A DNA stretch of 50,593 nucleotides from a virus (lineage: Duplodnaviria; Heunggongvirae; Uroviricota; Caudoviricetes). The translations under genes and the position numbers were made by a program. The stretch is taken from IMG/VR virus record IMGVR_UViG_3300035158_000899. One strand, written 5' to 3'. Positions 412-36,196 of the stretch are shown here, one piece after another. Each line of letters starts with the position of its first letter. Position 1 is the first letter of the stretch. A model generated the notes under the pieces. That model did no database searches. It worked only from the letters and a program-made list of their open reading frames with translations, and was not told the DNA's origin.

Positions 412-797
412 AATACACATTAGAATTGTCTAGAACTCAATGTCAAGTTCTTGTAAGTGCACTTGACAATTTTTCAAGACTGGGAATGGGGCAGTTTTAT
501 ACAGTGGTTAGTGAACATATTCCCCGAAATTTTCGTAGTATTAATATGCAGGAAGTAAACGATATGTGTGATAAATTGAAACTAGCAGTTCATAGTGGTT
601 TAGATACCAACGCTTATCATGGAATACATAGTGGAGAAATCAGCGATTATTACAGGGTTGCTTGGGATTTGCACCAGGTTATTAGACATCGTATTTCTTG
701 GGATGAACACCCCGAAGGTGGAATGACAGTTAATTTCGATACACCTATGAGAAGTTCAGAAAAGGAAGAATTAGCGAAAATAGAGCAAGTGAAATAA
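408..797 (+). CDS. hypothetical phage protein
   Basis: ATG 408 after GGAGG; overlaps upstream stop and downstream start. Confidence 0.7.
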   Translation: MKYTLELSRTQCQVLVSALDNFSRLGMGQFYTVVSEHIPRNFRSINMQEVNDMCDKLKLAVHSGLDTNAYHGIHSGEISDYYRVAWDLHQVIRHRISWDEHPEGGMTVNFDTPMRSSEKEELAKIEQVK

Positions 798-1032
798 TGC
801 ATTACAAGATAGGTAAAATATATAAGGGAATGGATTTCAATTTCTCCTTGTTAAGAGAGCAACATGTGCGTTAAAGAATCTTCCTGACTGCGCAAAATAC
901 AATTGCAAAGGCCTTCTTGTAGGCGTAGGAAAACTTCCAGATAATTACAACGAATTTAACCTTGACAGGAGAATAGTAGATCATGCCTTTTGTGGGTATG
1001 ATATGGAAAAACCTGTATATAAAGAAATATGA
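797..1032 (+). pseudogene. YKIG-family Cys-rich protein, frameshifted
   Basis: MHYKIGKIYKGMDF then frameshift near 840 into FLLVKRATC...CAKYNCKGLLVGVG...FCGYDMEKPVYKEI*. Confidence 0.75.
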
Positions 1033-1277
1033 AATACAAAATAGGTAAATGGTATAAGGTCAAACCAGAGTATAGGTGGCGATTTTCAGTTTGTGAAAGA
1101 CCACATTTAGTATTAAAAGTACACAACAAAGGGGATTGTTCGTGTTTTAGTGATAAGGAAGCATGTAAAACATGCGGAGGACCGATAGAGATTTTAGGTC
1201 TTAAAGGAAAATATTGCTGGTATGGAAATGACGGTGAGCCATATTGTGAGGAAATAAGTGAAATACGAAATAGGTAA
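1029..1277 (+). CDS. YKIG-family Cys-rich small protein
   Basis: MKYKIGKWY...CKTCGGPIEILG...YCWY...PYCEEI. Confidence 0.8.
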   Translation: MKYKIGKWYKVKPEYRWRFSVCERPHLVLKVHNKGDCSCFSDKEACKTCGGPIEILGLKGKYCWYGNDGEPYCEEISEIRNR

Positions 1278-1533
1278 ATGGTATAAGAGAAACCCGGAAT
1301 TATTAGCGCAAGACCCTTTCCATTCTTTTGAGCCAGAAATGTTTTTGCTGACAGGGCGGGTTAAATGCGAACATATCAAAAGAATGGAGGGTCGTTGTTC
1401 AATATGTAAAGGAGAACTTGAAGGTGTTGGTTACCGAAAACCGCCGGCATGGAAGAATAGAAAATCTTGCCCCTATACTATTGATAAAGTAGACCCAATA
1501 TATGTTCCAATAGAGGAAAACGATGTACTATAA
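1258..1533 (+). CDS. YKIG-family Cys-rich small protein
   Basis: GTG start; MKYEIGKWY...FLLTGRVKC...CSICKGELEGVG...CPY. Confidence 0.8.
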   Translation: MKYEIGKWYKRNPELLAQDPFHSFEPEMFLLTGRVKCEHIKRMEGRCSICKGELEGVGYRKPPAWKNRKSCPYTIDKVDPIYVPIEENDVL

Positions 1534-1795
1534 AATAGGCAGAGTATATACTTTTAATACTAAATTATTTGCGCCAATTATATCTGGACAAAAGTTTCTT
1601 TTAGTAGGTCGAAAACAATGTCTTATTAGTAATGAGGAAAGAGCCCTCAAATGCCCTGATAGTTGCAGAGGTAGATTAGCATATGTAGGTGATGATATGA
1701 CAACTTCAGGACACAAGAGAGATACTTTATGTGGCTATATAAGAACCTCGTTTGGTAAAATTCCGTTATATGTAGAAGTAAAGGAGTCAAAATGA
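1523..1795 (+). CDS. YKIG-family Cys-rich small protein
   Basis: MYYKIGRVY...FLLVGRKQC...CRGRL...LCGY...PLYVEV. Confidence 0.8.
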   Translation: MYYKIGRVYTFNTKLFAPIISGQKFLLVGRKQCLISNEERALKCPDSCRGRLAYVGDDMTTSGHKRDTLCGYIRTSFGKIPLYVEVKESK

Positions 1796-2127
1796 ATATT
1801 CTTATTTTAGAGGATTCAGATAAGAGAATTAATCAATTCCAGAAAAAACTAATAGGCCATTCTTGTACCTTCACAAAAACAGCACAAGAGTGTATTGCAC
1901 TGTTGAATAGTAAGAAATGGGATGTGTTGTTTCTGGATCATGATCTTGGCGGAAAAGCATTTGTAAAATCTGGAACAGGGACGGGATATGAAGTAGCGCT
2001 TTATTTGAGGACTAATTTACAGAAGTGTCCTGCTGAGGTAATTGTACATAGTGTAAATCCAGTAGGAGCTAAGAACATTTGCGATACATTAGAGAAAGCT
2101 AAACACGTACCTTTTGCGTGGGTGTAA
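1792..2127 (+). CDS. stand-alone receiver-like domain (cyclic-phosphate-processing REC type)
   Basis: ILILED...DVLFLDHDLGG...GYEVALYL...VHSVNPVG motifs typical of phage DHDLG receiver domains. Confidence 0.75.
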   Translation: MNILILEDSDKRINQFQKKLIGHSCTFTKTAQECIALLNSKKWDVLFLDHDLGGKAFVKSGTGTGYEVALYLRTNLQKCPAEVIVHSVNPVGAKNICDTLEKAKHVPFAWV

Positions 2128-2136
2128 GGAGGTATA

Positions 2137-2932: not shown

Positions 2933-3208
2933 ATGTATTATAAGACAGGTAAAATATATGTCCGCGGAAAGGAAAAAATCCTTGCAGTGGGTCGGAAAGA
3001 ATGTAGACACAAAATGTACAACACATGTCCAGGGTATTGTAAAGGTAGAATAGTATATGTAGGCACTTGTAATTATGCTAAAAGGTTTGATGATAGTACA
3101 ATATGTGGGTATCGCCCTATATTAACATCCTTAATTTACAAACCAGATTGGTTAACAGGTGATAAACGATATGTACTTCAGTTTATAGAATTAGACAATG
3201 CATTATAA
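2933..3208 (+). CDS. YKIG-family Cys-rich small protein
   Basis: MYYKTGKIY at 2933; ILAVGRKEC...CPGYCKGRI...ICGY. Confidence 0.75.
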   Translation: MYYKTGKIYVRGKEKILAVGRKECRHKMYNTCPGYCKGRIVYVGTCNYAKRFDDSTICGYRPILTSLIYKPDWLTGDKRYVLQFIELDNAL

Positions 3209-3422
3209 AGTAGGTAAGATATATGAGTGGAAAGCAACAGGAGAAAGATTTCTGTTAATAGGAAGAAAGAAATGTATTTATCGCGATTCTTACTGTTACA
3301 AAAAATGCAAAATATGCAAAGGCGAATTGATAGTTGTGGGAGATGTAATGAAAGCCCCATTAGGCGGCACAGTGTGTGGTTACCTTTTTGATGAGATACA
3401 TTATAAGGAAGTGAAAGAATAA
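3198..3422 (+). CDS. YKIG-family Cys-rich small protein
   Basis: MHYKVGKIY...FLLIGRKKC...CKICKGEL...VCGY...YKEV. Confidence 0.8.
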   Translation: MHYKVGKIYEWKATGERFLLIGRKKCIYRDSYCYKKCKICKGELIVVGDVMKAPLGGTVCGYLFDEIHYKEVKE

Positions 3423-3655
3423 TGCACTATAAAACAGGTGAGTGGTATAGACTAAGAGATGATGTTATTGGTGAAGCTAAGTTTATACTTGTGTTAGGAA
3501 GGAAAGAATGTGATTATAGGAAAAGTTTTCTTGGGTGTAGCAACAAACGCTGTAAAGGCCTTTTAGAAGTAGTAGGAAGTAGTGAACCTATTTGTGGTTA
3601 CAGTTTTGGTGCAACAACATATAAACTGGTTAAGAAACAATGCATTACGAAATAG
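3422..3655 (+). CDS. YKIG-family Cys-rich small protein
   Basis: MHYKTGEWY...GRKEC...CKGLLEVVG...ICGY. Confidence 0.8.
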   Translation: MHYKTGEWYRLRDDVIGEAKFILVLGRKECDYRKSFLGCSNKRCKGLLEVVGSSEPICGYSFGATTYKLVKKQCITK

Positions 3656-3873
3656 GTGAATGGTACGTAATAAAAGATGAATATACATCACCAAGGGCTG
3701 ATGCGCCGCCTAGATTGATACTTGTAATAGGCCGTAAACCTTGTGGTCCTTGCGACACTAAAACATGTGAAGGCCGATTAGAAGTATTAGGAGGGGATTA
3801 TTTGGTTTGTGGTTATGCTTACAGCAGGCCAATATATAAGCCATTAGAGGACAAGGAAGAAATTTGGCAATAA
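3640..3873 (+). CDS. YKIG-family Cys-rich small protein
   Basis: MHYEIGEWY...GRKPC...CEGRLEVLG...VCGY...PIYK. Confidence 0.8.
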   Translation: MHYEIGEWYVIKDEYTSPRADAPPRLILVIGRKPCGPCDTKTCEGRLEVLGGDYLVCGYAYSRPIYKPLEDKEEIWQ

Positions 3874-6324: not shown

Positions 6325-6610
6325 ATGTATTACAAAGTGGGTAAGTGGTACAAACAAGACTATTTAGCTAATATTCCAAGAGAATGTTTAATAATAGGTA
6401 GAGCAGTGTGCCGCAATGAACGTTGGCCAAAAAGGGCGCTTAGAGATAATGGGTTGTGATGTAACAGTTTGTCCTTATCCAGAACCAAAGTTGAGTGTTA
6501 AAGACTATAGGTTTCGTTACAAAAGATTTTTAAAGCCAATTAGAAAGCCATTTATCCTCAAACGATTAGTGAAAGCAATATGTAGCAAGTTAGCTTCAAA
6601 TCATGGATAA
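6325..6610 (+). pseudogene. YKIG-family protein, frameshifted
   Basis: MYYKVGKWY...CLIIGRAVC (frame stops at 6457-59); KGRLEIMG...VCPY continues in another frame. Confidence 0.7.
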
Positions 6611-6649: not shown

Positions 6650-6943
6650 ATGGTTAATTGGAAACATCGTATTAAATTGAATGATTTAAGAGACAAATAC
6701 GATGACGGTGAGATAACTGTATCTGAATGTGGAAAGAAGACTGCTGAACGTATAAAGAAGTCTTCTGCTGTTAACGATCCAGAATGGGGCGAAAGTTTCA
6801 AGCTAGTTGCTAAGGCTTTTGAGAGAATTAAGACAGAAAAAGGATTCAACAACGCGTTAGAAAGATTGTATAATTTAGGTGATACACTACTGAATGATAG
6901 GTGGTCAAGTACAAAACTTTGCTGGGTGGGGTTTGCTTTTTAA
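6650..6943 (+). CDS. hypothetical protein
   Basis: ORF track; AGGAGG RBS. Confidence 0.7.
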   Translation: MVNWKHRIKLNDLRDKYDDGEITVSECGKKTAERIKKSSAVNDPEWGESFKLVAKAFERIKTEKGFNNALERLYNLGDTLLNDRWSSTKLCWVGFAF

Positions 6944-7533
6944 TGTTATACTACTATCCTAACAGGCCCATTTTAGTTCCACCAGATCCAGATAATCCCA
7001 TGAATCCAGGATCACATTATATAACAAGCTTAGAGAATAGCGGTAAATATGTGGCTGAAGAAAAATGGAACGGGGCTAATGCGTTGATTTACACTGACAA
7101 TACATCGTCGTTTAGGGGCAGGCTTAAAAATAGTTTGAATTATACACCTACAGATGAAGTAAGAGATGAATTAGAAAGATGGCCAAAAGGGTGTATTTTG
7201 AATGTTGAGCTTGTGCATCAGAAAACAACGACAGTTAAAAATCTAATAATTGTGCATTGTGTAATGGCATGGAAAGGTAGATATTTAATAGGTAAGACAT
7301 GGGGTGATTCCAGAAGAATATTAGAAGATCAAAGATGTTATGGAAGGTATGTTAAACTTTCGAAGGTTTGCACATCAGGATTTTGGGATTTATTTCAGAG
7401 AGCAGACGGTAAGATTATTGAAGGGATTGTATTGAAAGATCCAAGAGGGAAATTAATATTTTCTACGACACCTGTAAGTGATGTGCCGTGGATGTTAAAG
7501 ATACGTAAACCAAATAAAAAGTACGCTTTTTAA
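6943..7533 (+). CDS. minimal ATP-dependent polynucleotide ligase (nucleotidyltransferase domain only)
   Basis: Motif I EEKWNG, III LNVEL, IV EGIVLK, V MLKIRKP; no C-terminal OB domain. Confidence 0.75.
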   Translation: MLYYYPNRPILVPPDPDNPMNPGSHYITSLENSGKYVAEEKWNGANALIYTDNTSSFRGRLKNSLNYTPTDEVRDELERWPKGCILNVELVHQKTTTVKNLIIVHCVMAWKGRYLIGKTWGDSRRILEDQRCYGRYVKLSKVCTSGFWDLFQRADGKIIEGIVLKDPRGKLIFSTTPVSDVPWMLKIRKPNKKYAF

Positions 7534-8651: not shown

Positions 8652-8879
8652 ATGCTTAAAGTAGGAAAGTGGTATAGAATAGGTATTTCGAAAGAGAGGC
8701 ATCCAGATTTTCCACAAATTACCATAATAGAGGAAATAGAAGATAGTTGCGAAAAATTACCTTGTGCATTATGCATGGGCGCAGTTAAAGTGTTAGGATG
8801 GAAATGTCCGCTTTGTATACGTAACTATGAACATGTGTTTAAAGAAATAAGGAGGGATAATGGAAGTTCAAGAATCTGA
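8652..8879 (+). CDS. YKIG-family Cys-rich small protein (divergent)
   Basis: MLKVGKWY at 8652...CALCMGAVKVLG...CPLC...FKEI. Confidence 0.65.
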   Translation: MLKVGKWYRIGISKERHPDFPQITIIEEIEDSCEKLPCALCMGAVKVLGWKCPLCIRNYEHVFKEIRRDNGSSRI

Positions 8880-9839: not shown

Positions 9840-10148
9840 ATGTACTACGAAGTAGGCAGATGGTATAAGAGGAATTCAAAGATATCAGACCAATTTAACA
9901 AAGATGAACCAAAGGTGTTTCTATTAACTGGAAGAGTTAAATGTGATATTAATTGAGCAGATGTATGTTCAACAGATGTATGCAAGTCTTGTTTAGGGCA
10001 TCTTGTTGGGGTAGGTTATCCGCTTACGACACCAAAGCCGGGTTATTGTCCTTATACAAAGTTTAAAATTCCTGTATGTGTACCAACAAGTAAAAAAGGT
10101 AGTAAGAAAAAGAAAAATTGGGAAAAGAAAATTCCATGTGCAGTTTGA
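9840..10148 (+). pseudogene. YKIG-family protein with in-frame TGA (9954-56)
   Basis: MYYEVGRWY...FLLTGRVKCDIN*ADVC...CKSCLGHLVGVG...YCPY. Confidence 0.75.
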
Positions 10149-10385: not shown

Positions 10386-10862
10386 ATGGAATGGATTATA
10401 CTTAAGAATGACACAGTCTCAGCCGCTATTACATACCCAGACAGTGTGAGTCTCGTGTTTGCATCTCATAAAAGACCCGGAGGCGGTTATAAGAACCACG
10501 AAAAAGGACAGGAAGAATTCATTGCCAGACGCACAAACCTTGTTGACAGACTTCAACCTTTTTTACATTTATATGGCGATAATTTTAAACCGTTTTATAT
10601 CCTACTCAAAGATGTCAAAATCAGCGGTACTAATTTACTCCGCGACTTTATAGTTTCCCATGCTCCAGTTGCTCGGTTACACAACGATCCAAATTCAGTA
10701 ATGGAAGAACGCATCAAAGTTGTTTGTAAAAAAGTAGCTTATTATCCCATTTTTATTACAGGCGCTTGGGGTTGCGGCTTTTTTGGTAACGATATTACTA
10801 AGGTCGAGAAATGGTTTAAACAGTATGCTACTAATGAAAAAGTTGTATGGGCCATTAAATAG
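10386..10862 (+). CDS. microbial-type PARG / TIGR02452-like macrodomain protein
   Basis: FASHKRPGGG-X7-QEE catalytic loop and GAWGCGFFGN motif. Confidence 0.8.
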   Translation: MEWIILKNDTVSAAITYPDSVSLVFASHKRPGGGYKNHEKGQEEFIARRTNLVDRLQPFLHLYGDNFKPFYILLKDVKISGTNLLRDFIVSHAPVARLHNDPNSVMEERIKVVCKKVAYYPIFITGAWGCGFFGNDITKVEKWFKQYATNEKVVWAIK

Positions 10863-11498: not shown

Positions 11499-11726
11499 AT
11501 GAATAATCATTATTTAGGTTACTATCCAAACTACAAAATAGGTGAAGTATATGAAGAAGGCGATTATAAGTTTATGGTAATAGATAGAGTAGAGTGTAAA
11601 CGGCCTTGTTTGTTTACTAAACAACCCTGCAAAGGTTTAATAAAAGCAATAGGTAGAGTTCCAGTTACACATCCCTTTTGCGGCTTTCCTAGTTTAACCT
11701 ACCATTACGGCAATCCCCGTAAATAA
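11499..11726 (+). CDS. YKIG-family Cys-rich small protein
   Basis: ...NYKIGEVY...FMVIDRVEC...CKGLIKAIG...FCGF. Confidence 0.7.
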   Translation: MNNHYLGYYPNYKIGEVYEEGDYKFMVIDRVECKRPCLFTKQPCKGLIKAIGRVPVTHPFCGFPSLTYHYGNPRK

Positions 11727-13417: not shown

Positions 13418-13810
13418 ATGGAAAAGATTGTAGATCTTGGAGTTGATGCTGGAAATATATCCTTTGTTGATAAGGATTATATTTTAGCGAACAATGGTAT
13501 GATAGGTGACACTGCGAAAAGAGAGTGCAAAGAGTACGAGATAGGACCTGGTGAATACAAGATAAACATAGAAATGCCTGATACTTGGAATGGAAAAATA
13601 AGCGAGGAATTTACGATAAGTATTCCATCGGGAACGTTGTGTGTTGGAGATATGTGTTATTTCTTTTCGTCGGATGAAGTTGATCATAATGTATGGTTGG
13701 ATTATTTGAATAGAACGAACCATATGGAGAAGCAAGAAGAAGAAAGGGTTACATGCCGTACAGGCGGTGATGGTGAGTTTTCTGTTTCGTTTGGGATAAC
13801 GAAAGTTTGA
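13418..13810 (+). CDS. hypothetical protein
   Basis: ORF track; GVDAG...VGDMCY...TGGDGEF motifs. Confidence 0.7.
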   Translation: MEKIVDLGVDAGNISFVDKDYILANNGMIGDTAKRECKEYEIGPGEYKINIEMPDTWNGKISEEFTISIPSGTLCVGDMCYFFSSDEVDHNVWLDYLNRTNHMEKQEEERVTCRTGGDGEFSVSFGITKV

Positions 13811-13821
13811 AAGGAGTAATA

Positions 13822-15543
13822 ATGCCATACGATAATGAGCATGTAGCAAATATTCTCGATGAACTTGCTTCGATGCTTGAGATGTCAGGGAATAAGGGAG
13901 ATAGGTTTAAAGTAAGTGCATACAAAAAAGGCGCACTTGCTGTTAGACAACTTACGAGAGACATCAACACAATCGATTTTAACACTGAAAAAATACCTGG
14001 AATAGGAAAAAGCATGATTGAAAAGATAGGTGAAATTCTACAAACGGGAACCTGCAAGAAACGTGAAGAGCTAATAAAAGATAGTCCCGTACCACCGACA
14101 GTAACACAATTCAAGAAACTTCCTGGAATAGGCCCAAAGAAAGCAATAGCAATTTGGGAAAAATACAAAGTAGCAACACTTGAAGAACTTGATGCAAAGA
14201 TAAAAGACGGAACAATAGACAATCCAGATCTTGCAGAAGCACTTGAATTTGCTAAGAGAGCAGGATCGAGAAGGCTTTACAGAGATGGATTTAAGATAGC
14301 TGAAAAAGTAAGACTGAAAATGCTTGAAATGCCAGGCGTTAAGATAGCAACACATCTTGGTTCAATTCGAAGAAAGAAACCAACAGTAAAAGACGCTGAC
14401 ATTGGTATTGTAGTAGAATCACCTGAGATAGAAAAGAAAGTAGTAGAAGAATTTCTTTCAATGGCGCAGAAAGTAAGATCGAGTGGACCACAAAAGCCTT
14501 CGATTTACATAAATGATTTCCAAGTAGACTTAACGATAATACCTGAAGATGAATACGGAACATATATATTACACGCAACAGGAAGTGCAGAATTTAATAT
14601 AGCAATGAGAATGCGAGCACTTTCAACTTTAAGTAAAATGAGTCTAAGTGAACATGGAATAACAAACTCTGTAACAGGAGAGGAATACAAATTTAAGACG
14701 GAAGAAGCAGTATTTAAATTTCTTAGGTTGCAATACATACCGCCTGAGATGAGAGAAAACCAAGGAGAAATTGAACTAGCGGAGAAACATGAAATACCTG
14801 AATTTGTGACAATGGATGATATTGAAACTGATTATCATCTTCATTCAAAGTACTCAGATGGTTCAGGGACAATAGAACAACTTGCGGAAGAAGCTAAAAG
14901 GAGAGGGCTGAAAACAATTGTAATTACAGATCACGCTAAGAAACTTGCTATGGCAGGCGGATTGAAAGATGAAGAACTACAGAAGCAAATAGATCATATC
15001 AAGAGTCTGAACATCGAAGGTATTGCAGTAAAATCGGGCATTGAGCTTAATATTGATTCAAGCGGTAATATAGATGATTATCCAGAAGAGATACTAAAAC
15101 AGCTCGATGAAGTAATTGCTTCGGTACACTTTGGATTTAACGGAGACCAAACAGAGCGGCTAATCAAGGCAATTCAGAATCCATACGTTACAATACTAGG
15201 GCATCCTGATTGCGCAGATCATGGAAAGAGAGAACCAATAAAAGCAGGTTGGGAGAAAGTAATCAAAGTATGCGCAGAAAACAATGTAGCTCTTGAAATA
15301 ACAGGGCAACCTTCGAGATACGGATTATCAATTGAGATGTGTAAGATAGGGAAGAAATACGGAGTGAAATTTACGCTAGGTACAGACACACACAGACTTG
15401 AGAATATGGATTATATGCAGTATGCAGTTAATTCAGCAAGAAGAGGAGGTCTTACAAAAGATAATATTCGTGGTACAGGAAAGAGAACTGTGACAAAGAA
15501 GGAAATCGATGTAACCAATATTGAGATAATTCCATTGAAATAG
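13822..15543 (+). CDS. polX: DNA polymerase X family with C-terminal PHP domain
   Basis: HhH motifs (IPGIG, LPGIGPK), GSIRRKKPTVKDADI, QVDL, HATGSAEFN; PHP motifs HLHSKYSDG, ITDHA, GHPD, GTDTH. Confidence 0.92.
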   Translation: MPYDNEHVANILDELASMLEMSGNKGDRFKVSAYKKGALAVRQLTRDINTIDFNTEKIPGIGKSMIEKIGEILQTGTCKKREELIKDSPVPPTVTQFKKLPGIGPKKAIAIWEKYKVATLEELDAKIKDGTIDNPDLAEALEFAKRAGSRRLYRDGFKIAEKVRLKMLEMPGVKIATHLGSIRRKKPTVKDADIGIVVESPEIEKKVVEEFLSMAQKVRSSGPQKPSIYINDFQVDLTIIPEDEYGTYILHATGSAEFNIAMRMRALSTLSKMSLSEHGITNSVTGEEYKFKTEEAVFKFLRLQYIPPEMRENQGEIELAEKHEIPEFVTMDDIETDYHLHSKYSDGSGTIEQLAEEAKRRGLKTIVITDHAKKLAMAGGLKDEELQKQIDHIKSLNIEGIAVKSGIELNIDSSGNIDDYPEEILKQLDEVIASVHFGFNGDQTERLIKAIQNPYVTILGHPDCADHGKREPIKAGWEKVIKVCAENNVALEITGQPSRYGLSIEMCKIGKKYGVKFTLGTDTHRLENMDYMQYAVNSARRGGLTKDNIRGTGKRTVTKKEIDVTNIEIIPLK

Positions 15544-17064: not shown

Positions 17065-17688
17065 ATGGAATTGAGGAGAGCTATGCGTGTAGACCCTGAA
17101 ATTGTTAAGAAATATACCGTAAGCATAATACGTGATTTTACGAATATAAGACGCTGGCCACATAAACGCGACAGAAATAAAATGTCATTAATCGCAGTGG
17201 TAGATGGTTGTGCATATCGTATACCTTCTTCTGATACTATAAACAAAGGAATAGTACGATTAGAATTAGCATATTCGATATTATATCCTGAACTTCCGGC
17301 TATGCCACTTTCAGAATGCGGGAAAACCCCAGAAAAATATGATATATGTGGAAATGTAATAGTGTACAGAAAAGATGTTTACCTTTTAGTAAGAAAAACA
17401 CACTCACACGGTGATTATCAATTTTACTTTAAATTAAATGGCGATAAATGGGAAAGACAAAATACTAGGGAATTTAGCAAATTTCTACATAAGGAAATCG
17501 TTACAATAAAGCGTAACGGATTGTGGAAAAGGCCAAACAAAGAAGAAAAAGAATTACTTAAGAGGTTAAGAAGATTAAACCCACATAAAGATAAAAGGAT
17601 GGCTGTTCGAAATCCTTTGGATAATCATATTTCTTTGAAAAAAGTTCTCTATTTTAATAAGGAGGCAAGATGGATTTTATCGAAATAG
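17065..17688 (+). CDS. hypothetical basic protein
   Basis: 207 aa ORF. Confidence 0.6.
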   Translation: MELRRAMRVDPEIVKKYTVSIIRDFTNIRRWPHKRDRNKMSLIAVVDGCAYRIPSSDTINKGIVRLELAYSILYPELPAMPLSECGKTPEKYDICGNVIVYRKDVYLLVRKTHSHGDYQFYFKLNGDKWERQNTREFSKFLHKEIVTIKRNGLWKRPNKEEKELLKRLRRLNPHKDKRMAVRNPLDNHISLKKVLYFNKEARWILSK

Positions 17689-19620: not shown

Positions 19621-19884
19621 ATGAAATACAAAATAGGTGAGTGGTACCAATTAATCAAAGAGAGAGAAGATTGGATCCCGAGAGCAATGCCTGAGATAAT
19701 ATTGACAATTGGTAGAAAACTCTGTATTTATTATGATTGTGAACAAAGAAAATAAGGAGGAATTTGTAAAGGAAGATTAGTATTAGGAGCTGATCAAAGC
19801 GTTTGTGGTTATTGGTCAAATGGCGAACCTAAGTATGAACAAATAAAGAGTAAACAATGCATTATGAAATACCTGATGGTTTAG
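19621..19884 (+). pseudogene. YKIG-family protein with in-frame TAA (19753-55)
   Basis: MKYKIGEWY...IGRKLC...CEQRK*GGICKGRLVLG...VCGY...PKYEQI. Confidence 0.75.
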
Positions 19885-19922
19885 GCATCATAGTAGAACC
19901 AAGTAGAAACGAAGGAGGCAGA

Positions 19923-20207
19923 ATGAGAGACTATATCGAGTTAGGCCCTACTCCGGCAGATGAAGAGTGTGCGCAGTTAGGTTCAGAAAATTATGAAGAT
20001 AAAGCACGCGAAGAATGCAAAAGACATATTGAAAGAATCAAAGAAGTGTGCGGGAAAGAGCCAAAGAGAGCACATTTAGGTATAAAGTCTTTTGAACATG
20101 ATTTTGGAATTTATTTTGAAGTTGTGTGTTATTACGATGATGATAACGAAGAAGCAACTGAATATGCTCTTAAGTGCGAGGGCGAAGGACCAACCACTTG
20201 GAAATAA
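19923..20207 (+). CDS. hypothetical phage protein
   Basis: MRDYIELGPTPADEECAQ...HDFGIYFEVV; GGAGG RBS before 19923. Confidence 0.7.
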   Translation: MRDYIELGPTPADEECAQLGSENYEDKAREECKRHIERIKEVCGKEPKRAHLGIKSFEHDFGIYFEVVCYYDDDNEEATEYALKCEGEGPTTWK

Positions 20208-20498: not shown

Positions 20499-21023
20499 AT
20501 GATAATAACGAACATTGATGAATTAAGAAAACCTTCTGAGCCTGTTAAAGACGAAGCGAAAGCAAAAGAAATAATTGGAAAATTAGAAGAAACTTTAAGA
20601 TACAATGGTAACGGAATAGGTTTAGCTGCACCACAGATTGGAATACATAAGCAAGTTGCTATAATACGCTATAACAACTTTTCTTTAGATGTTGTTAATC
20701 CTACAAATGTTCGTTTGTTAGATGGCGCATTTTTATTCAAAGATGAAAGTTGCCTCAGTCTTCCAGGCGTTAGTAAAAACACTTTAAGAGCTAGAAGTAT
20801 CGATTTTATTAACAACGAGAAAGAAAGCCATTTTTATTCAATAGAAAAACTCGAATCTATTATAGTAGTTTGTGTACAACATGAGATAGACCATTTGTTT
20901 GGCAAGTTATTTGTAGATTATGCATTAAAGCCAATTGAAGGTGAAACCAAAATAGGAAGAAACGATCCTTGTATGTGCGGAAGTGAAAAAAAGTTCAAAA
21001 AGTGTTGTGGTAGAGGAACATGA
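20499..21023 (+). CDS. def: peptide deformylase with C-terminal SEC-C motif
   Basis: [26 protein letters not shown]; [18 protein letters not shown]. Confidence 0.9.
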
Positions 21024-23462: not shown

Positions 23463-23708
23463 ATGTATTACAAAATAGGTAGGGTATACGGGCATAGTGT
23501 AGCGAAGATGTTTCTTCCAGTGCCGGTATTTGAAAAGTTTCTTTTAGTAGGAAGAGAAGAATGTAAAAAACCTTGGTGTGATTGCAATATGGGTAGTAAG
23601 TGTCAAGGCAGTTTAGTTACTATAGGAGATAGAATTCACAGTGGCGGATGTGGATATTGGCCAAGTGGTAAACCAATTTATACAGAAGTGAAATGCATTA
23701 CAAAGTAG
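23463..23708 (+). CDS. YKIG-family Cys-rich small protein
   Basis: MYYKIGRVY...FLLVGREEC...CQGSL...CGY...PIYTEV. Confidence 0.8.
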   Translation: MYYKIGRVYGHSVAKMFLPVPVFEKFLLVGREECKKPWCDCNMGSKCQGSLVTIGDRIHSGGCGYWPSGKPIYTEVKCITK

Positions 23709-23914
23709 GCAAGATATATAGAGGGCTGGGTGTCGATATACTTGTATTAAAGAGAGTTGAACGTAAAAAGTGTATCAGCTTTAGATCCGTATCATCGAGG
23801 TGTGATAAGTGCAAAGGTCTTATTATTGGTTTAGGTACACCACTTGAAGAGAATTGTGGGTACTTTATGGACGGGACTCCAATATTTAAAGAAGTGAAAT
23901 GCATTACAAAATAG
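23693..23914 (+). CDS. YKIG-family Cys-rich small protein
   Basis: MHYKVGKIY...CDKCKGLIIGLG...CGY...PIFKEV. Confidence 0.8.
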   Translation: MHYKVGKIYRGLGVDILVLKRVERKKCISFRSVSSRCDKCKGLIIGLGTPLEENCGYFMDGTPIFKEVKCITK

Positions 23915-24117
23915 GTAAGATATACGAGAGCAAGTTATTTGGAAGTAGATTCCTTTTAGTGGGTAGAAAAGAATGCTCGAATCGTCACGATGGCTGCTCA
24001 CTTAAATGTGAAGGTACATTAGTTGGTGTAGGAGATATATCTATTTCCGGTTGTGGTTATGTGGGTAAAGCAGGAGGACATGAACCTATATATAAAGAAG
24101 TGAAAACCAAAACCTAA
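23899..24117 (+). CDS. YKIG-family Cys-rich small protein
   Basis: MHYKIGKIY...FLLVGRKEC...CEGTLVGVG...CGY...PIYKEV. Confidence 0.8.
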   Translation: MHYKIGKIYESKLFGSRFLLVGRKECSNRHDGCSLKCEGTLVGVGDISISGCGYVGKAGGHEPIYKEVKTKT

Positions 24118-24134: not shown

Positions 24135-24746
24135 ATGTCTCTCGTTTCACAAAAGTACAAACTCTCAATTACGTTTACAGGTCCTATTCTTGGTAGTCAA
24201 CCAGGAAAGGATACCCCTGCAAGTGATTTCATTCGGGATAAAGTTAGGAAAGAAAATCCGGATGCAGATATTGCAGATGAAGTTCCTACACTTCCTGAAG
24301 AGCTTGAAAAAGGCACTACAGGATTTCATAGGGACGCAAAAGGAAAACCTATACTTTTCAACTATCAAATAAAAGGGGTGATAAAAGCCGCTGGCGATGT
24401 TCTTAATGGTTTAGATAACTTCAGAGCATTGAAATCAAAAATCACTAATACGGTGTTTGTTAGTCCACGTCAAATCCCCATAAAAGGGAAGTTGCGTAAA
24501 CAACCGCTTGAGAGACCTTTGTTAGGTCAGACTATGAAAGGGCCGAGAACTAGTTTAGCTCGATCTGAAGTAATTGAAGAAGGTGCTAAAATTGTATGTG
24601 AACTCGAAGTAATGCTAACGCCAAAGGTAAAACTTCCAGAAGAGACACTTAGGGATATTTTGGATTATGCCGCTAAGTTAGGCGTCGGGCAGTGGCGTAA
24701 TAGTGGAATATACGGACAGTTTGAATACAAACTCGAAGCGTTGTGA
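24135..24746 (+). CDS. solitary Cas7/RAMP-like protein (putative Vipr-type effector)
   Basis: N-terminal strand YKLSITFTGPILGS, central GKPILFNYQIKGVIKAA helix (cf. RAMP P.IPGSSLKG), C-terminal G-rich loop LGVGQWRNSGIYGQF; AGGAGG RBS; no other cas gene in window. Confidence 0.75.
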   Translation: MSLVSQKYKLSITFTGPILGSQPGKDTPASDFIRDKVRKENPDADIADEVPTLPEELEKGTTGFHRDAKGKPILFNYQIKGVIKAAGDVLNGLDNFRALKSKITNTVFVSPRQIPIKGKLRKQPLERPLLGQTMKGPRTSLARSEVIEEGAKIVCELEVMLTPKVKLPEETLRDILDYAAKLGVGQWRNSGIYGQFEYKLEAL

Positions 24747-24747
24747 T

Positions 24748-25371
24748 AGTTTCGTAACGTACCATAACACAACGTATCGTTGGGGTAATACATAGTGCGG
24801 TTAAGTAAGGCGCCGGCAGGGTAGGGTAGTGTTCTGGCCGTATAGTTTTGTTCAGTATTGGCGAGGTACGGCGTAATTTGGTCCGGTGTTGGTTTAGTTA
24901 GGTTTGGTTGGTTTCGTCGGGTTCGGTGCTGGCTAAGTTTGGTAGAGCGAAGCACAGCACAGGCAACGTTATGTAGGGTATGGTACTGTGACGTTTTGGC
25001 AAGGTACTGCGCAGGACAGCTGAGCGCAGTAGTGGCTGGGTAATGTGTGGCGATGTTATGTACAGTAATGTTTCGGCTTAGTCCCGTAAAGCACAGTCAC
25101 GGCAGGGTAACGTAAGGTGCAGAGGATGTGGTATTGTGTGGTAGAGGTAATGTGCAGGACAGCTGAGCGCAGTAGCGGCAGGGCGCTGAGTAGCACAGCA
25201 CAGTAGTGTGTTGCCTTGTACTGGCATGGCAATGTTCAGTTTAGTACAGTATTGTGTCGGTAATGTCTGGTCGGATGTCGTGAGGTGGTGGTAATGTGTG
25301 GCGAGGTGCCGTGGGGTGGTAGTATGGTAAGGTTGTGTGTGGCGGAGCATAGTGCAGTAATGGTACTGTTA
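24748..25371 (+). repeat. degenerate 5-nt-period NGY-NN tandem array, putative non-coding guide RNA
   Basis: ~110 NGY triplets spaced by variable dinucleotides, e.g. ggc-aa ggt-ac tgc-gc agg-ac agc-tg agc-gc agt-ag; GC content well above flanks; starts 1 nt after the RAMP stop and ends at the next RBS. Confidence 0.85.
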
Positions 25372-25380: not shown

Positions 25381-25629
25381 ATGTATTATAAAATAGGAAA
25401 GATGTACAAGAACAAGTCTTATAAGTTTTTACTTATAGGAAGAGTAAAATGTAGTGGATGTTATAATTCTCTACATATGAAACATATAAATATAGACGCC
25501 AATGGTTGTTATGTAAAATGCAGAGGTAGATTAAAGATAGTAGGAAAAGCTCACGGGTTCGATAATAGTAATTCAACAATATGCGGTTATGGAATAAATA
25601 AACCTATATTTGAAGAAATGGAGGAGTGA
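25381..25629 (+). CDS. YKIG-family Cys-rich small protein
   Basis: MYYKIGKMY at 25381 after AAGGAG; FLLIGRVKC...CRGRL...ICGY...PIFEEM. Confidence 0.8.
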   Translation: MYYKIGKMYKNKSYKFLLIGRVKCSGCYNSLHMKHINIDANGCYVKCRGRLKIVGKAHGFDNSNSTICGYGINKPIFEEMEE

Positions 25630-26079: not shown

Positions 26080-26415
26080 TTGAGCCACGATTTAGAAATA
26101 AAGATGGCTAAAATATTAGGTATTAGAGATACTTACACATTAGCTCATTTTGAAAATTTTTCAAAAGAACAATCGCTTGCTATGAGTGAAGGAAGATTTA
26201 AACTTCCTAAAAGATCAATTAAATGTGAGATTGGCAAATGGTATAGAGCAACAAATGAAAGAAGTATGTTCCTTGCAGCGAGGAAAATAACTTGTCCCTT
26301 TACACCCAATTACACTTTTTGTGTCGATTGTAAAGGTGCAATAGAAGGGGTAGGGATAGAAAGACCAGTTTGTCCAATGATGGGTAACATAGAAGAAATA
26401 AATAATGTATTATAA
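26080..26415 (+). CDS. protein with C-terminal YKIG-family domain
   Basis: ...KCEIGKWY...CVDCKGAIEGVG...VCP...EEI; start uncertain. Confidence 0.6.
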   Translation: MSHDLEIKMAKILGIRDTYTLAHFENFSKEQSLAMSEGRFKLPKRSIKCEIGKWYRATNERSMFLAARKITCPFTPNYTFCVDCKGAIEGVGIERPVCPMMGNIEEINNVL

Positions 26416-26668
26416 AATAGGTAAAGTATATAAAAACAAAAAGATAGTTGATTTTGTAGAGATTGATGCAAATGGAAGCAAACCTACTTCGGTTGATAGG
26501 ATTCTTGTTTTAAGAAGAAAAGAATGTGCACATAAGTTTTGTCAGAAGCAAAGGAATATACCTAATTGTCAAGGATTGATAATTTGTTTAGGACATAAGA
26601 ATCAGCTTTGCGGATATTCATATGAAACAGGTGAACCCTTATTTGAAGAAATAAGCAATGTATTATGA
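26405..26668 (+). CDS. YKIG-family Cys-rich small protein
   Basis: MYYKIGKVY...RRKEC...CQGLIICLG...LCGY...PLFEEI. Confidence 0.8.
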   Translation: MYYKIGKVYKNKKIVDFVEIDANGSKPTSVDRILVLRRKECAHKFCQKQRNIPNCQGLIICLGHKNQLCGYSYETGEPLFEEISNVL

Positions 26669-26864
26669 AGTAGGAAAAGTATACCGGATAACGGATAGCG
26701 TATTTCCTTCAAGCAAAGTAGTGGGTAAAACATTCCTTTTAATTAAACGCGAAGCATGTGTTGACCGAATGCCACAATGCGGCACCTGTAAAGGAGAATT
26801 GACGGGAGTAGGCATTGATATATCTCTTTGTCCTATGTATTTAAAAATAGAGGAAGTAAAGTAA
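26658..26864 (+). CDS. YKIG-family Cys-rich small protein
   Basis: MYYEVGKVY...FLLIKREAC...CGTCKGELTGVG...LCP. Confidence 0.8.
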   Translation: MYYEVGKVYRITDSVFPSSKVVGKTFLLIKREACVDRMPQCGTCKGELTGVGIDISLCPMYLKIEEVK

Positions 26865-27106
26865 TGTTTTATAAAATAGGGAAGATGTTTAGCGGTTCTG
26901 ATCATAAGGGGACTTTTCGTTTTTTAGTTATAGGAAGAGCTGCATGTTCTCTTAGTCCTAGCTGTAATAATAAGCACTGTAAAGGCGGATTAATTATAGT
27001 AGGCGATAGACCAATTTGGGCGGGCAAGATTGGTCCATTTTGTGGTTATGATTATCTTAATGATGTGCACGATCCGGTTTTTAAAGAAGTAAAAAATGAA
27101 ACTTAA
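26864..27106 (+). CDS. YKIG-family Cys-rich small protein
   Basis: MFYKIGKMF...FLVIGRAAC...CKGGL...FCGY...PVFKEV. Confidence 0.8.
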   Translation: MFYKIGKMFSGSDHKGTFRFLVIGRAACSLSPSCNNKHCKGGLIIVGDRPIWAGKIGPFCGYDYLNDVHDPVFKEVKNET

Positions 27107-27692
27107 ACCAGGGAAATTATGTATAACAAAGGATGGTAAGAAATCTCTTGTTATTAAGAATGAGGCATGTAAAGATAGAGGGGTGTTTGGCGAAGCGTGC
27201 GATAAATGCGAAGGTATAGCAGTTGGCATAGGAGATGTGTACCATTTCTGCCCTGTAGCGGTTGGACAAATAAAGACAAAGACAAGATTTCGGTTTCACC
27301 CTTTTGTTAGCAGGACAACTACGGGACTCAAAAAGATATTCAACGATAATAAAGTAATTGTTGAAAACTCTTGTGACATACCAACAAATTTAAGTGTAAG
27401 CATACCAACTGACTGGTGGTGCGGTTATGTAGCACTCAAGAGAGGGGTTGAAATTCCTGAAGACTGGATTGAATATTCTACAGTAGAATCAGATATTGAT
27501 GTTCACGGAGGGCTTACTTATAGTTGTGTATCAGGTGATTATACAGTGTTTGGTTTTGATTGTAATCATTATAGTGATGAACATGATCCTGATAAGAGAA
27601 ATCCGATATGGCTTATGAAAGAAGCAATGCGAATGGAAAAGAATTTAAAGAAGCAAGCAAAGAAATTTATGAAGAAAGGGAGGCTAAAGTGA
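27096..27692 (+). CDS. fusion: divergent YKIG-like Cys domain + CGYV/HGGLTY/GFDC phage domain
   Basis: MKLKPGKL...CDKCEGIAVGIG...FCP then WWCGYV...VHGGLTYS...GFDCNH. Confidence 0.7.
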   Translation: MKLKPGKLCITKDGKKSLVIKNEACKDRGVFGEACDKCEGIAVGIGDVYHFCPVAVGQIKTKTRFRFHPFVSRTTTGLKKIFNDNKVIVENSCDIPTNLSVSIPTDWWCGYVALKRGVEIPEDWIEYSTVESDIDVHGGLTYSCVSGDYTVFGFDCNHYSDEHDPDKRNPIWLMKEAMRMEKNLKKQAKKFMKKGRLK

Positions 27693-27694
27693 GA

Positions 27695-28087
27695 ATGGAT
27701 GTAGAAATTAAAACATCTGAAGTTTTTAAAGAGTTTTCGAAACTTAAAGCAAAGGAAATGCTCAAAGTAGGTAAAATAATTGGCATTGTTATAGCTGTTA
27801 TTTTGGCAGTGATTGGGATCGGTTATTTAACTGGACTAGGTGTAATTGCAATGATTCCTGTAAAATATGCAACAGAAAATCCGCCTACAATTATTGATAT
27901 AGTAGGAACTGGGCTTTTAACATTATGCGCTATATTTATGATTGGGCTCGTTTGTTATTTGATGTTTAGATACATAATATTTAACTTTATGGTATTAGGG
28001 TTGAAACGTTGGATATCAGGTAATTGGTATGAAGCTAAATGGAATGTGCGACAGAGAAAAGAGAGTGAAGAATGTACTACAAAATAG
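27695..28087 (+). CDS. membrane protein (2 TM)
   Basis: Two hydrophobic segments; GGAGG upstream. Confidence 0.6.
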   Translation: MDVEIKTSEVFKEFSKLKAKEMLKVGKIIGIVIAVILAVIGIGYLTGLGVIAMIPVKYATENPPTIIDIVGTGLLTLCAIFMIGLVCYLMFRYIIFNFMVLGLKRWISGNWYEAKWNVRQRKESEECTTK

Positions 28088-28299
28088 GCCAATGGTATAA
28101 GAATCGTGGGTATAGAGATATACCTAAAATATGCTTGGTAACAAACATAAAGAAGTACAAAAGAGGTAAGACTGATTGGTGTCCGAGAATGTGTTTCGGT
28201 ATGATAGAAATATTAGGTGCAAAGAATGAGTTAGAATGCGGTTTTGATGCAGTTTCAAAAGTACCTATACTTGAAAGAATGGAGAAATATGCTGTATAG
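28072..28299 (+). CDS. YKIG-family small protein
   Basis: MYYKIGQWY...CPRMCFGMIEILG...CGF...PIL. Confidence 0.8.
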   Translation: MYYKIGQWYKNRGYRDIPKICLVTNIKKYKRGKTDWCPRMCFGMIEILGAKNELECGFDAVSKVPILERMEKYAV

Positions 28300-28654
28300 A
28301 ATAGGTAAGATGTATCATGGATTTAACGTTGCTAATTATATGAATGACTATAAAAAGTTTTTTCTTATAGATAGAGTAGAATGTGATTGTAGGTCGAAGC
28401 TTACCTGTTGTCAACATTGTAAAGGAAAGTTAAAGGTTATAGGATACGAGAAACCATTTTGTGGTTATGTACATAAACCAAATACTGTAATAGCAAGGTA
28501 TGCAGAAGTAAAAGAAGAACCGGCTGAATCTATAGCATTACCTTTGGTAAAATACAATGAGAAAGACGAGCCTATATACGGAAGTGTACCTGTACGTTAT
28601 TTACGAACATATCTTAAAGAACCCACGCAAAGAGAACAGTGGAAGGTACAATGA
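28289..28654 (+). CDS. YKIG-family protein with C-terminal extension
   Basis: MLYRIGKMY...FLIDRVEC...CQHCKGKLKVIG...FCGY...YAEV. Confidence 0.75.
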   Translation: MLYRIGKMYHGFNVANYMNDYKKFFLIDRVECDCRSKLTCCQHCKGKLKVIGYEKPFCGYVHKPNTVIARYAEVKEEPAESIALPLVKYNEKDEPIYGSVPVRYLRTYLKEPTQREQWKVQ

Positions 28655-28860
28655 AATATAAAGTAGGTGAATGGTATAAAAAAGGTGAGTCTATATTCCT
28701 TTTGACGAGGAGAATAGGTTGCAGATCACCTATAAATGGTTTATACATTTGCAGAGAGTGTAAAGGAAAAATAGAAGGTTTAGGCTTGGATAAACCCTGG
28801 TGCCCTTATGATGGCAGTGGATTTCCAATATTTACTTTAGTGAAAAAGGAGAGAAAATGA
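28651..28860 (+). CDS. YKIG-family Cys-rich small protein
   Basis: MKYKVGEWY...FLLTRRIGC...CRECKGKIEGLG...WCPY. Confidence 0.8.
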   Translation: MKYKVGEWYKKGESIFLLTRRIGCRSPINGLYICRECKGKIEGLGLDKPWCPYDGSGFPIFTLVKKERK

Positions 28861-29314: not shown

Positions 29315-29581
29315 ATGCATTACAAAATAGGTAAAGTATACCAGGTAAAGGAAGAATTTAAGTTCTATACTAGATTTAGTAAGAAGTTTTTTCTTATTAA
29401 AAGAATAAAATGTTCTTTTGTAGATGCAGTAACTTGTAAGTTTTGTAGTCTGTGTTCTGGCGAAAGACTAATAGGCGTTGGTGATTGTAGTAACGAACCT
29501 TTTTGTGGTTATGCAGAACAATATAATGAGGGCATAGTAATATATGAAGAGGTGAGGGATGTTGATAATATTTCCGAATAA
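29315..29581 (+). CDS. YKIG-family Cys-rich small protein
   Basis: MHYKIGKVY...FLIKRIKC...CSLCSGERLIGVG...FCGY...IYEEV. Confidence 0.8.
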   Translation: MHYKIGKVYQVKEEFKFYTRFSKKFFLIKRIKCSFVDAVTCKFCSLCSGERLIGVGDCSNEPFCGYAEQYNEGIVIYEEVRDVDNISE

Positions 29582-30245: not shown

Positions 30246-30458
30246 ATGAAATACGAACCGAGTAAAATGTATCAGTTTAAAGATAATAAGCATGTTAAGT
30301 TTTTACTCATCGGAAGAGAAGCTAAAAACGCTAAGTGTAAAAATTATAAATGTGATAAGGCGTGCAAGGGGTTTCTTAAAACTATAGGCGGTTATAATGG
30401 GCTTTTTTGTGGTTATAGAATGAACGGCGTTCAAATATATCAAGAAGTTAAAGCTTAA
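30246..30458 (+). CDS. YKIG-family Cys-rich small protein (divergent)
   Basis: MKYEPSKMY...FLLIGRE...CDKACKGFL...FCGY...IYQEV. Confidence 0.75.
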   Translation: MKYEPSKMYQFKDNKHVKFLLIGREAKNAKCKNYKCDKACKGFLKTIGGYNGLFCGYRMNGVQIYQEVKA

Positions 30459-34164: not shown

Positions 34165-34990
34165 GGAGGGCGCATGAAGAAATATGCCGATTGTGCCAAA
34201 AAGTGTTATAGTAGTGCTCCGCAACCTATGAAAGTTCTTCTTATAATTTATGGTCTTGTATCTCTTTATGCTGCACCAATGCGCATATATGAAATGACTA
34301 CGTGGATAATAAAGTGGTTTGAATAGGAGCTTATATGAAACGAAAAAATGACGAAGATGAAAAATATACTGTAGAACAAATAGAGGCATTTTTAGATTTC
34401 GCTATTAAGAATGGCTTTGGAAAGAGAATTGTTGATGCTAGCAGAGATTATAAAGAACTTGATGCGCTGTTTATATTTAATCATTTGAAAGAGATACAAG
34501 AACGATTAGATGAAAAACTTAAAATGAGGGAGAAGTAATGAGATACTATAAGGTAGAGAAGACTTTTCGCGGTGGTGGAAATACATATTTTACCAAGGTT
34601 ATGTTATGAGGAGAGGGTGCTGGCAATATCAACTACAAGATTGGGGAGAAAATACTCCAGGCGGTCATAATTATGGGTATACAATAAACATTTGGCCGAT
34701 AAAGGGATTACCTAAAAGAAAACCCAAATGGGGTTTTAAGTTTTTACGTGTTGATGCTAACTATTTAAAAAAGGTAGGGAAAAATGACTAAAGAATGTGC
34801 TGGCGTTGCTTGTCAGATTGCTTATGAATATGAGAATGTAGGTAACGAACACATATCTGATATGTATGATACGTATGAAGGTGAAGCGCCGTTTAGTTTC
34901 GATGTGCTTGAAGATGCTACATATGAAGCTCTTAAATTGAGGAAAGAGGGTTTGTCATATGATGATGCATTGAAAAAATTAGGAGGTTGA

Positions 34991-35831
34991 ATGAAAATTA
35001 ATTCAATTTCTATTGTTCCGCAAGAGGTAGGCTGTAATGCAAAATGCAAATATTGTATTGCGCATTTGACTAAAGCTGTACGAAAGGGTAGAAAAAAGCC
35101 GGGTATTATACTACCTAAGTTAGAGAAATGCTTGAAGTTTGCTAAAGAGGGTGGTGCTCAAACAGCTATTATAACATCACATGGTGAAACCCTTTTAGGG
35201 AGTTGAACAAATGTAGAGAATATAGCTTGGTTGTGCAGGAAGTATTTTGGGCAGGTTGATTTGCATACAAACGCTACTGAGATATTAAATCCGCCAAAAT
35301 ACGGCAGAGGATTTGATACCATGATAGCACCGTATCTTACCAATGTAACAATTACGGTAGCACACTACAATCGCAAGAAAAACGAGCAATTAATGGGATT
35401 TAATATCGACTATAAACGATTGTTTGATAGGTTGAACAATCTTGGATTGCCGATAAGATTAAGTTGTGTGGTGTGCAGAGAAGGCATTAATTCGGCAACA
35501 GAAATGCAGAAGTACATCAGTTTTTATAGAATAGGGCGTTTCTCAAATTGTATTTAGAGAATTGTGGATACCCAAAAGTTCTTCCAGAACGGAAACATGG
35601 TGCCTTGATAATCTTATACCACAACACGTTATAGATGAATGGATGCCGTCAATAAGCCATGATTGTAGAAGATTAAATGTTTGGGGAGATTATCCAATTG
35701 ATTTTGACGGCGTTGGAGTTTCAACTTCTACTTGCGCTAGAAATAATACAAGAGAAGTTGTTAAGTCAGTAGTTTATGAATTCGATAATTATTTGTATTA
35801 TGATTGGGACACGAAAGTAAAAATAATGTAG
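34991..35831 (+). pseudogene. radical SAM protein, interrupted (in-frame TGA 35204-06 and frameshift ~35535)
   Basis: GCNAKCKYC CxxxCxxC; frame continues after TGA (TNVENIAWLCRKYF..LHTNA); later GVSQIVFRELW in shifted frame. Confidence 0.75.
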
Positions 35832-35884
35832 CTTGTCGCGTTGCCTGGCTCGTATGTCTTTATTCCTCGTTTGTACCTACCTAA

Positions 35885-35928
35885 ATTTGTTAGGGTAAGA
35901 TTTTAGAATTTTAAATATTTATAGATAG
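35885..35928 (+). promoter_or_regulatory. repeated intergenic motif, copy 6
   Basis: atttgttagggtaagattttagaattttaaatatttatagatag. Confidence 0.6.
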
Positions 35929-35965
35929 CAAATAATTTTGTTTATCTATAAGTAGGAGGTACACA

Positions 35966-36196
35966 TTGTATTATGTGGTCGGTAGGATGTACGAGGAGAA
36001 ACAATTAAATGTTTTTTCTAATGAAGGAAAGAGAATGCTTTTACTTAAGAGAGAGAAATGCAGTATGTCTGGTAGTGCAACTTTTAGTAAATGTACAAAT
36101 TGTAAAGGTTATTTAGTAGGAATAGGTTATAAAAAGCCTATTTGTGCTTATGCGGAAGGCGAATCAAGGTTTGTTGAAATAACACAAGGAGAATAA
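35966..36196 (+). CDS. YKIG-family Cys-rich small protein
   Basis: TTG start after AGGAGG; MYYVVGRMY...REKC...CTNCKGYLVGIG...ICAY...FVEI. Confidence 0.75.
   Translation: MYYVVGRMYEEKQLNVFSNEGKRMLLLKREKCSMSGSATFSKCTNCKGYLVGIGYKKPICAYAEGESRFVEITQGE

Follow-up and report, generated by a model that had tools for sequence, protein, structure and literature searches.

Why should a single phage carry some thirty diverged copies of one very small, cysteine-rich protein, and what could such a repertoire do? The question is raised by a stretch of 50,593 nt from a virus of the class Caudoviricetes (Duplodnaviria; Heunggongvirae; Uroviricota; IMG/VR record IMGVR_UViG_3300035158_000899), which is called the window here and belongs to a contig of 117,056 bp. 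The window has a GC content of ~36% and a pronounced positive GC skew, and all of its long open reading frames (ORFs) lie on the + strand. A first-pass annotation had proposed an expansion of about 30 copies of a family that it did not recognise, and had interpreted these copies as zinc-stabilised binders amplified like an “accordion”. Our results show that the genes are old duplicates kept by protein-level selection, and that they form a lineage-specific multigene family of a large phage. The encoded proteins are probably non-enzymatic binding modules, and a role in conflict with the host is the reading that we tentatively prefer.

A hidden Markov model (HMM) of the family, built first from 12 clear copies and later from 42 sequences, was used to search the window's stop-to-stop ORFs in all six frames. 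It recovered 35 ORF pieces with E-values from 1e-24 to 1e-3, all of them on the + strand, and zero matches on the − strand. After the choice of start codons these pieces yield 26 intact genes and five degraded copies, which bears out the size of the expansion as first proposed. The proteins comprise about 65-120 residues, and public gene callers predict the same ORFs as genes. The members are laid out in six tightly overlapping tandem runs and as singletons from position 797 to 36196, with an extra remnant near 47.6 kb. In total, the family DNA amounts to 6.76 kb, a share of 18.7% in the first 36 kb and of 5.8% in the complete contig.

The alignment consensus reads MxYKIGKxY..FLLxGRxxC..C..CKGxLxxVG..CGY..PxYxEV. 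Cys37 and Cys52 are invariant, Cys26 is found in 41 and Cys33 in 40 of the 42 sequences, and Gly6, Tyr9, Gly39 and Gly45 are conserved to at least 90%. At the level of the sequence, four conserved Cys are thus available as possible ligands of a Cys4 zinc site. Column entropy is below ~1.8 bits in the scaffold and above 3 bits in the loops, whose lengths range over 7-30, 2-18, 2-8, 4-13 and 0-20 residues around a fixed C-[KR]-G-x5-G segment. Together with the all-beta models described below, these data support a fixed scaffold of about four Cys with highly variable loops. Conserved columns are restricted to M, Y, G, L, R, C and P, and the absence of His, Asp, Glu and Asn from them makes an enzyme unlikely. 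A fixed scaffold with variable loops points instead to binding modules.

The members differ strongly from each other, with a mean pairwise identity of 33% within the window, a maximum of 55% and a minimum of 17%. At invariant residues the codons are mixed (TAC/TAT 11:11 for Tyr, four Gly codons, TGT/TGC about 2:1 for Cys). Since synonymous codons are exchanged freely where the amino acid is invariant, conservation acts on the protein and the copies are old. The 42 proteins form a star-like maximum likelihood tree whose terminal branches measure ~1.2 changes per site, and the copies of the window do not cluster apart from those of other contigs (12 label changes versus 12.9 in shuffled data). 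A weak split (support 72/99) sets the CGY majority apart from a CP[YM] subfamily; the latter comprises the members starting at 1258, 2403, 26221 (the family domain of the gene from 26080), 26658 and 28651 as well as five copies of a 35.6-kb JGI contig. Several window members are closest to a copy on this second contig: 1258 to P0024 (49%), 2403 to P0030 (50%) and 28651 to P0033 (46%). As these window members are closest to copies of another phage, the diversification is older than the split of these phages, and in combination with the five dead copies this indicates birth-and-death evolution rather than a recent accordion. The “accordion” analogy of the first-pass annotation therefore fails. 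Its term “hypervariable” is justified in so far as the paralogues are very diverged, but no active diversification mechanism was seen: long near-identical repeat pairs of the kind left by a diversity-generating retroelement do not involve the family, whose repeats are the conserved 5′ ends only, and no reverse transcriptase was found among the scanned subset of window ORFs.

The family has a restricted distribution. The family domain matched no model of Pfam, NCBIfam or PHROG in any of the 42 members, in agreement with the failure to recognise it at first sight. Among 1.84 billion representatives (of ~15 billion proteins), an exhaustive hmmsearch returned 42 hits, of which 26 come from the window itself. 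A routine domain present at similar copy number in many phages is ruled out by this result, which leaves only 16 outside relatives: seven on a single JGI contig of 35,585 bp and nine on ENA, Logan and JGI fragments of 0.5-2 kb. The genes on these fragments are again tandem and overlapping, as in one fragment (L001) with two full members within 555 bp. Since the remainder of the 117-kb contig contributes none of the 16, every called member of this phage lies within the window. In addition, tblastn of one member against 50,697 phage records gave nothing at E ≤ 10, scans for related DNA found no relative among IMG/VR viral contigs, JGI metagenome contigs or GTDB genome contigs (185,579 species genomes), and word-indexed protein searches gave no gain over the exhaustive profile search. 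PDB sequences compared with the family profile produced noise only (best E 1.8). On a 2-kb Logan contig (L005, 550-1618) a member is followed by two XRE-type helix-turn-helix (HTH) genes, a context unlike that of the window.

Structure prediction assigns a compact all-beta fold to the family. The AlphaFold2 model of the member at 23899-24117 (72 residues), calculated with the 42-sequence alignment, reached a mean predicted local distance difference test (pLDDT) score of 87.8 and a predicted template modelling score of 0.74, and shows seven short strands. The model of the member at 28651-28860 (69 residues, CPY subfamily), based on 11 CP-subfamily sequences, reached a pLDDT of 82.9 and has its first three strands as in the first model. 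Both were compared with 48,161 PDB representatives by VIA-align; further comparisons drew on PDB and BFVD in Foldseek and on the ESM Atlas in a shape search. Although derived from different alignments, the two models retrieve identical structural neighbours, as expected if the members share one fold. The neighbours common to both in VIA-align (Z 5.0-5.5 over 45-53 residues at a root mean square deviation of 1.9-2.6 Å, where Z below 8 may reflect a mere common arrangement) are the UvrD/PcrA C-terminal Tudor domain, uL24 (KOW), CarD/CdnL, NusG KOW, the EF-P N-domain, HspQ and R67 DHFR. Because the match scores are weak, we name the fold only as a class, a predicted small SH3-like beta-barrel with the four conserved Cys in and beside the loop between strands 2 and 3, and not as membership of any of these families. 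In the modelled member C26 follows directly after strand 2, C33 and C37 precede strand 3, C52 comes after strand 4, and a conserved K/R-G stands directly behind C37. From this placement we infer a single structural zinc site formed by the four Cys. A homodimer prediction with zinc included, in which the zinc itself is unscored, gave a score of 0.00 and no evidence either way.

Known barrels resemble the predicted one in part. Tudor and KOW-type barrels (7egs_B and 5dma; uL24 in 6eri_AU and 8fn2_W; CarD/CdnL; NusG KOW) share its size and strand order, but they lack the four-Cys loop, and the window family shows neither sequence similarity to them nor a KOW motif. At E ≤ 10, the 42 members gave no Pfam match to KOW (PF00467), Tudor or CarD_TRCF; a lone NusG_II match at E 0.039 fell short of the cut-off. 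DUF1653 (PF07866; 3be3) is the best Foldseek row both in PDB (E 0.19, TM 0.44-0.50) and in the viral models of BFVD (E 0.04, TM 0.58), in each case non-significant, and DUF1653/DUF2158 clusters appear in the ESM Atlas at TM 0.54-0.56. DUF1653, YodC/DUF2158 and YorP (2heq) are small standalone SH3-like barrels of phages or bacteria, and are common in phages. PF07866 and PF09926 are matched by none of the 42 members even at E ≤ 10, and unlike the window family, DUF1653 and DUF2158 have no Cys4 insertion and are not known as multi-copy expansions.

The six tandem runs and the singletons were located correctly by the first-pass annotation. All members are encoded on the + strand, and neighbours within the arrays overlap by 1, 4, 11 (six cases), 16 (four cases) or 20 nt. 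The first array opens with a degraded copy (797-1029, MHYKIGKIY...), followed by members of 82 residues (1029-1277; HMM E 1e-21), 91 residues (1258-1533; GTG start, CPY subfamily, 20-nt overlap with the preceding member) and 90 residues (1523-1795; 11-nt overlap). The gene behind them (1792-2127) is a non-member that encodes a cyclic-phosphate-processing receiver, cREC_REC (PF20274, E 3e-17), and shares a 4-nt ATGA overlap with the last of these members. The second array consists of genes for 93 residues (2137-2418; AGGAGG upstream) and 102 residues (2403-2711; CPY subfamily, basic C-terminal tail, 16-nt overlap). The third contains genes for 91 (2933-3208; an alternative ORF start at 2891 is possible), 74 (3198-3422), 77 (3422-3655) and again 77 residues (3640-3873). 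The product of the last has an isoelectric point (pI) of 5.0 and is one of just two window members with a pI below 7, the other being that of the 88-residue singleton at 29315-29581 (pI 6.6).

The fourth array (23463-23708, 81 residues; 23693-23914, 73 residues, 16-nt overlap) ends with the first of the two modelled proteins (23899-24117). The fifth starts with a gene (26080-26415) whose product, a CP-subfamily member, carries an N-terminal extension of ~47 residues, its family domain beginning at 26221; it continues with genes for 87 (26405-26668), 68 (26658-26864; CP subfamily) and 80 residues (26864-27106). The limits of 26080-27106 given for this run before were right, but the run extends further into a fusion gene for 198 residues (27096-27692), in which residues 1-60 form the family domain and residues ~105-188 match phrog_2164. 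This second domain (motif HGGLTY...GFDCNHYSD) is encountered elsewhere as a standalone protein of ~127 residues on metagenomic contigs. The sixth array comprises a divergent member of 75 residues without the first conserved Cys (28072-28299), a member of 121 residues with a C-terminal tail of ~45 residues (28289-28654) and the second modelled protein (28651-28860). Further singletons encode 75 residues in a divergent member (8652-8879; called by public gene callers as 128 residues from 8493), 75 residues with a short N-terminal extension in front of a YKIGEVY motif (11499-11726), 82 residues (25381-25629; AAGGAG upstream), 70 residues (30246-30458) and 76 residues (35966-36196; TTG start, AGGAGG upstream).

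Five copies are degraded: two by frameshifts, two by a single in-frame stop and one as a multi-stop remnant. In the copy at 797-1029 one frameshift near 830-870 places the N- and C-terminal parts in different frames. At 6325-6610 the N-terminal half and a CPY-type C-terminal half are likewise in different frames, and the third Cys is lost. The copies at 9840-10148 and 19621-19884 are interrupted by TGA at 9954-9956 and TAA at 19753-19755, respectively. In the remnant at about 47500-47751, which lies beyond the range of the first-pass annotation, the C-terminal two thirds are recognisable and several stops occur upstream. Recoding of stop codons was considered for the in-frame stops and rejected, the two being different codons; moreover, TGA is the terminator in 14 of the 53 long ORFs, among them family members that overlap the next gene by ATGA, and neither a tRNA nor a suppressor tRNA was found in the window. 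Directly behind the decayed member at 19621-19884, a non-member ORF of 116 residues (19857-20207) begins with MHYEI, and over its first ~25 nt it shares 88% identity with the 5′ end of the member at 3640. Recombination, or the deletion of a member, seems to have given this gene the start and junction typical of the family.

Through the head-to-tail packing with overlaps of 1-20 nt, the arrays form operons with translational coupling, and the recurrent C-terminal tails are by-products of these overlaps. Where the tail is CITK or CVTK followed by a stop, the upstream gene reads through the ATG-CAT-TAC-AAA-ATA-GG of the next gene and ends at an out-of-frame TAG; in tails with NVL or NAL followed by a stop, it ends at an out-of-frame TAA within TAT-AAA. 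Conserved ...KEVK codons (AAGGAAGTGAAA) stand directly 5′ of the next ATG and may do double duty as its ribosome-binding site. In the intergenic gaps, the promoter-like motif TTTGTWAGGGTA occurs in seven + strand copies (3895, 11192, 11736, 12966, 30511, 35886 and 36591), compared with 0.74 expected. A CTATATAGAGATAG-like sequence follows ~17 nt after it, and on this pattern the motif with its downstream element is a candidate phage promoter. Just one family member, at 35966, sits directly behind a copy, as the first gene after that at 35886. A sigma-70 promoter scan of the window showed no excess over the shuffled expectation, and no Rfam families were detected in it.

Beside cREC_REC, further accessory and repair genes on the + strand lie scattered between the family members: a weakly matched ATP-dependent ligase/RNA-ligase-like ORF (6901-7533), a microbial PARG-like (macro-type) domain (10386-10862), PolX with a PHP domain (13807-15543), an NAD-dependent DNA ligase with BRCT (17670-19619) and a peptide deformylase with a SEC-C motif (20499-21023). 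A radical-SAM-like gene (34991-35831; CNAKCKYC) is split into three ORFs by an in-frame TGA at ~35207 and a frameshift at ~35557, indicating that the contig contains broken genes outside the family, or assembly errors. Further paralogue pairs are 3991-4320/11816-12166 (48%), both partners of which follow a copy of the promoter-like motif, 13256-13408/29163-29315 (36%) and 17065-17688/40129-40938 (25%). The locus at 24135-25371 is abutted at both ends by family members (23899-24117 and 25381-25629), exactly as noted before. Its ORF of 203 residues, first called RAMP-like, has no Pfam match and a marginal PHROG match (E 0.007). The GC-richer stretch behind this ORF gave no Rfam match, and direct repeats of ~50 nt are located inside the locus at 25002, 25145 and 25222.

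With regard to function, we favour the reading that the family represents diversified, non-catalytic binders of host components used for takeover or counter-defence, and give it a probability of roughly 40% on the present sequence evidence. In such a mechanism, a single zinc ion bound by the four Cys would stiffen the barrel. The barrel would serve as constant scaffold, and four loops of variable length would provide each paralogue with a target of its own, resulting in a repertoire of non-catalytic binders. This repertoire could act in host conflict, either in takeover or by neutralising components of defence or stress responses, and copies would be gained, diverge and die as the targets change. 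Loop diversification, copy turnover, the restricted distribution typical of accessory genes and the fusion to phrog_2164 were counted for this reading. So were the cREC_REC gene embedded in the first array, with its ATGA overlap to a member, and the PARG-like and RNA-ligase-like genes nearby; cRec has been assigned to counter-defence (counter-nucleotide) or RNA-repair roles by Iyer et al. 2021 (PMC7824862). Several points weigh against this reading. The guilt by association hangs on cREC_REC as the single embedded gene, and the fold matches are weak, at a Z of about 5. The deep divergence, and the fact that another phage has the subfamilies too, are as compatible with stable roles over long periods as with an arms race. 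Furthermore, the median pI of the members is 9.1, with 21 of 23 compared genes above pI 8, which is at least equally compatible with nucleic-acid binding.

The best surviving alternative starts from this charge. According to it, the proteins would be small basic zinc-knuckle regulators of transcription or translation with an SH3/KOW-like fold, or proteins that coat DNA; they would recognise DNA or RNA by sequence or structure, and the loops would set the site specificity. We consider this a close rival, somewhat less likely than the favoured reading. Basic residues occur at the well-conserved positions K7, K/R10, R23 and K/R38, the last beside the third Cys, and many structural neighbours bind RNA or DNA (uL24, NusG KOW, EF-P, a PWWP complex with single-stranded DNA, an integrase C-terminal domain). 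However, other small ORFs of the window are basic as well (median pI 8.9), so that the charge of the family does not differ significantly from theirs (Mann-Whitney p = 0.33). An HTH-like or other known DNA-binding motif is missing, the fold matches are weak, and a genome of 117 kb would hardly be expected to encode as many as 26 regulators. Repeated operator-like sites matching the number of paralogues were not found either; the one promoter-like motif with its seven copies was all that was seen.

A precedent for this alternative exists in Bacillus phage G, in which a zinc-ribbon family has expanded to ~35 copies; its authors suggest roles as specific transcription factors or in structural DNA binding (PMC7824862). 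Both are large phages in which a small four-Cys protein has diverged into tens of copies, some in tandem and others scattered. The two families are not homologous, since the window profile finds nothing at E ≤ 1 in the 497-kb genome NC_023719.1. The phage G proteins (gp32, 34, 35 and 37) have ~90-117 residues and combine a CPxC...C..C ribbon at the N-terminus with a helical KENDRYL tail, whereas the window family is predicted as an all-beta SH3-like barrel with the pattern C-x(2-18)-C-x(2-8)-C-[KR]-G...C-[GP]-Y. The window family also reaches the higher copy density, with 31 loci in 117 kb versus ~35 in 497 kb in phage G.

A more far-reaching version of the favoured reading is doubtful in our view. 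It would have the zinc-stabilised mini-barrels form a “binder library”, tuned through its loops to different host molecules and blocking many defence or stress systems, or else a new class of programmable nucleic-acid-recognition modules.

It is improbable that the family modulates the host RNA polymerase or ribosome through a Tudor/KOW-like barrel, in the manner of UvrD, PcrA, Mfd and CarD, which bind the beta lobe of the polymerase, or of uL24, NusG and EF-P on the ribosome. For both models, the top VIA-align rows do include 7egs_B (Z 5.3-5.4), in which the C-terminal Tudor domain of UvrD is bound to the RNA polymerase lobe, together with PcrA/UvrD Tudor, CarD/CdnL, NusG KOW and uL24. These scores of ~5 are, however, no higher than those of unrelated SH3-like rows such as R67 DHFR, NdhS and CAP-Gly, sequence similarity to the families in question is absent, and one conserved target fails to explain 26 diverged paralogues with variable loops.

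Two further explanations are very unlikely. A recent adaptive accordion, that is, a short-lived rise in copy number under selection acting now, as in poxviruses, would fit the head-to-tail arrays and their recurring junction types, but near-identical tandem copies are absent, the closest pair reaches 55% protein identity only, synonymous sites are randomised, copies of other phages interleave with those of the window, and members are scattered across 47 kb. Decaying repeat DNA or selfish cassettes with incidental ORFs could account for the five broken copies, the broken genes elsewhere on the contig and the 5′ ends as best-conserved DNA segment, but not for 26 copies that retain open frames, starts and four Cys at 33% mean identity, free variation of third codon positions at invariant residues, confidently folded models and the agreement with public gene callers.

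In summary, the family and its scaffold are new, and the phenomenon of expansion has a precedent. The expansion of single small-protein families in large phages is already known, phage G being the only printed case found, and the 31 loci with their 5.8% share of a 117-kb genome represent the highest copy density documented in this analysis. The case is distinguished by an uncatalogued, predicted SH3-like barrel with a Cys4 loop, by birth-and-death turnover, and by an enzyme of counter-defence type in one of the arrays. If a “binder library” directed at host molecules should prove true, it would constitute a new scaffold class of phage counter-defence proteins, and if the proteins are specific binders, they may offer a compact natural scaffold. 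Being tiny, numerous and confidently predicted, they are convenient material for finding out what purpose such expansions serve.

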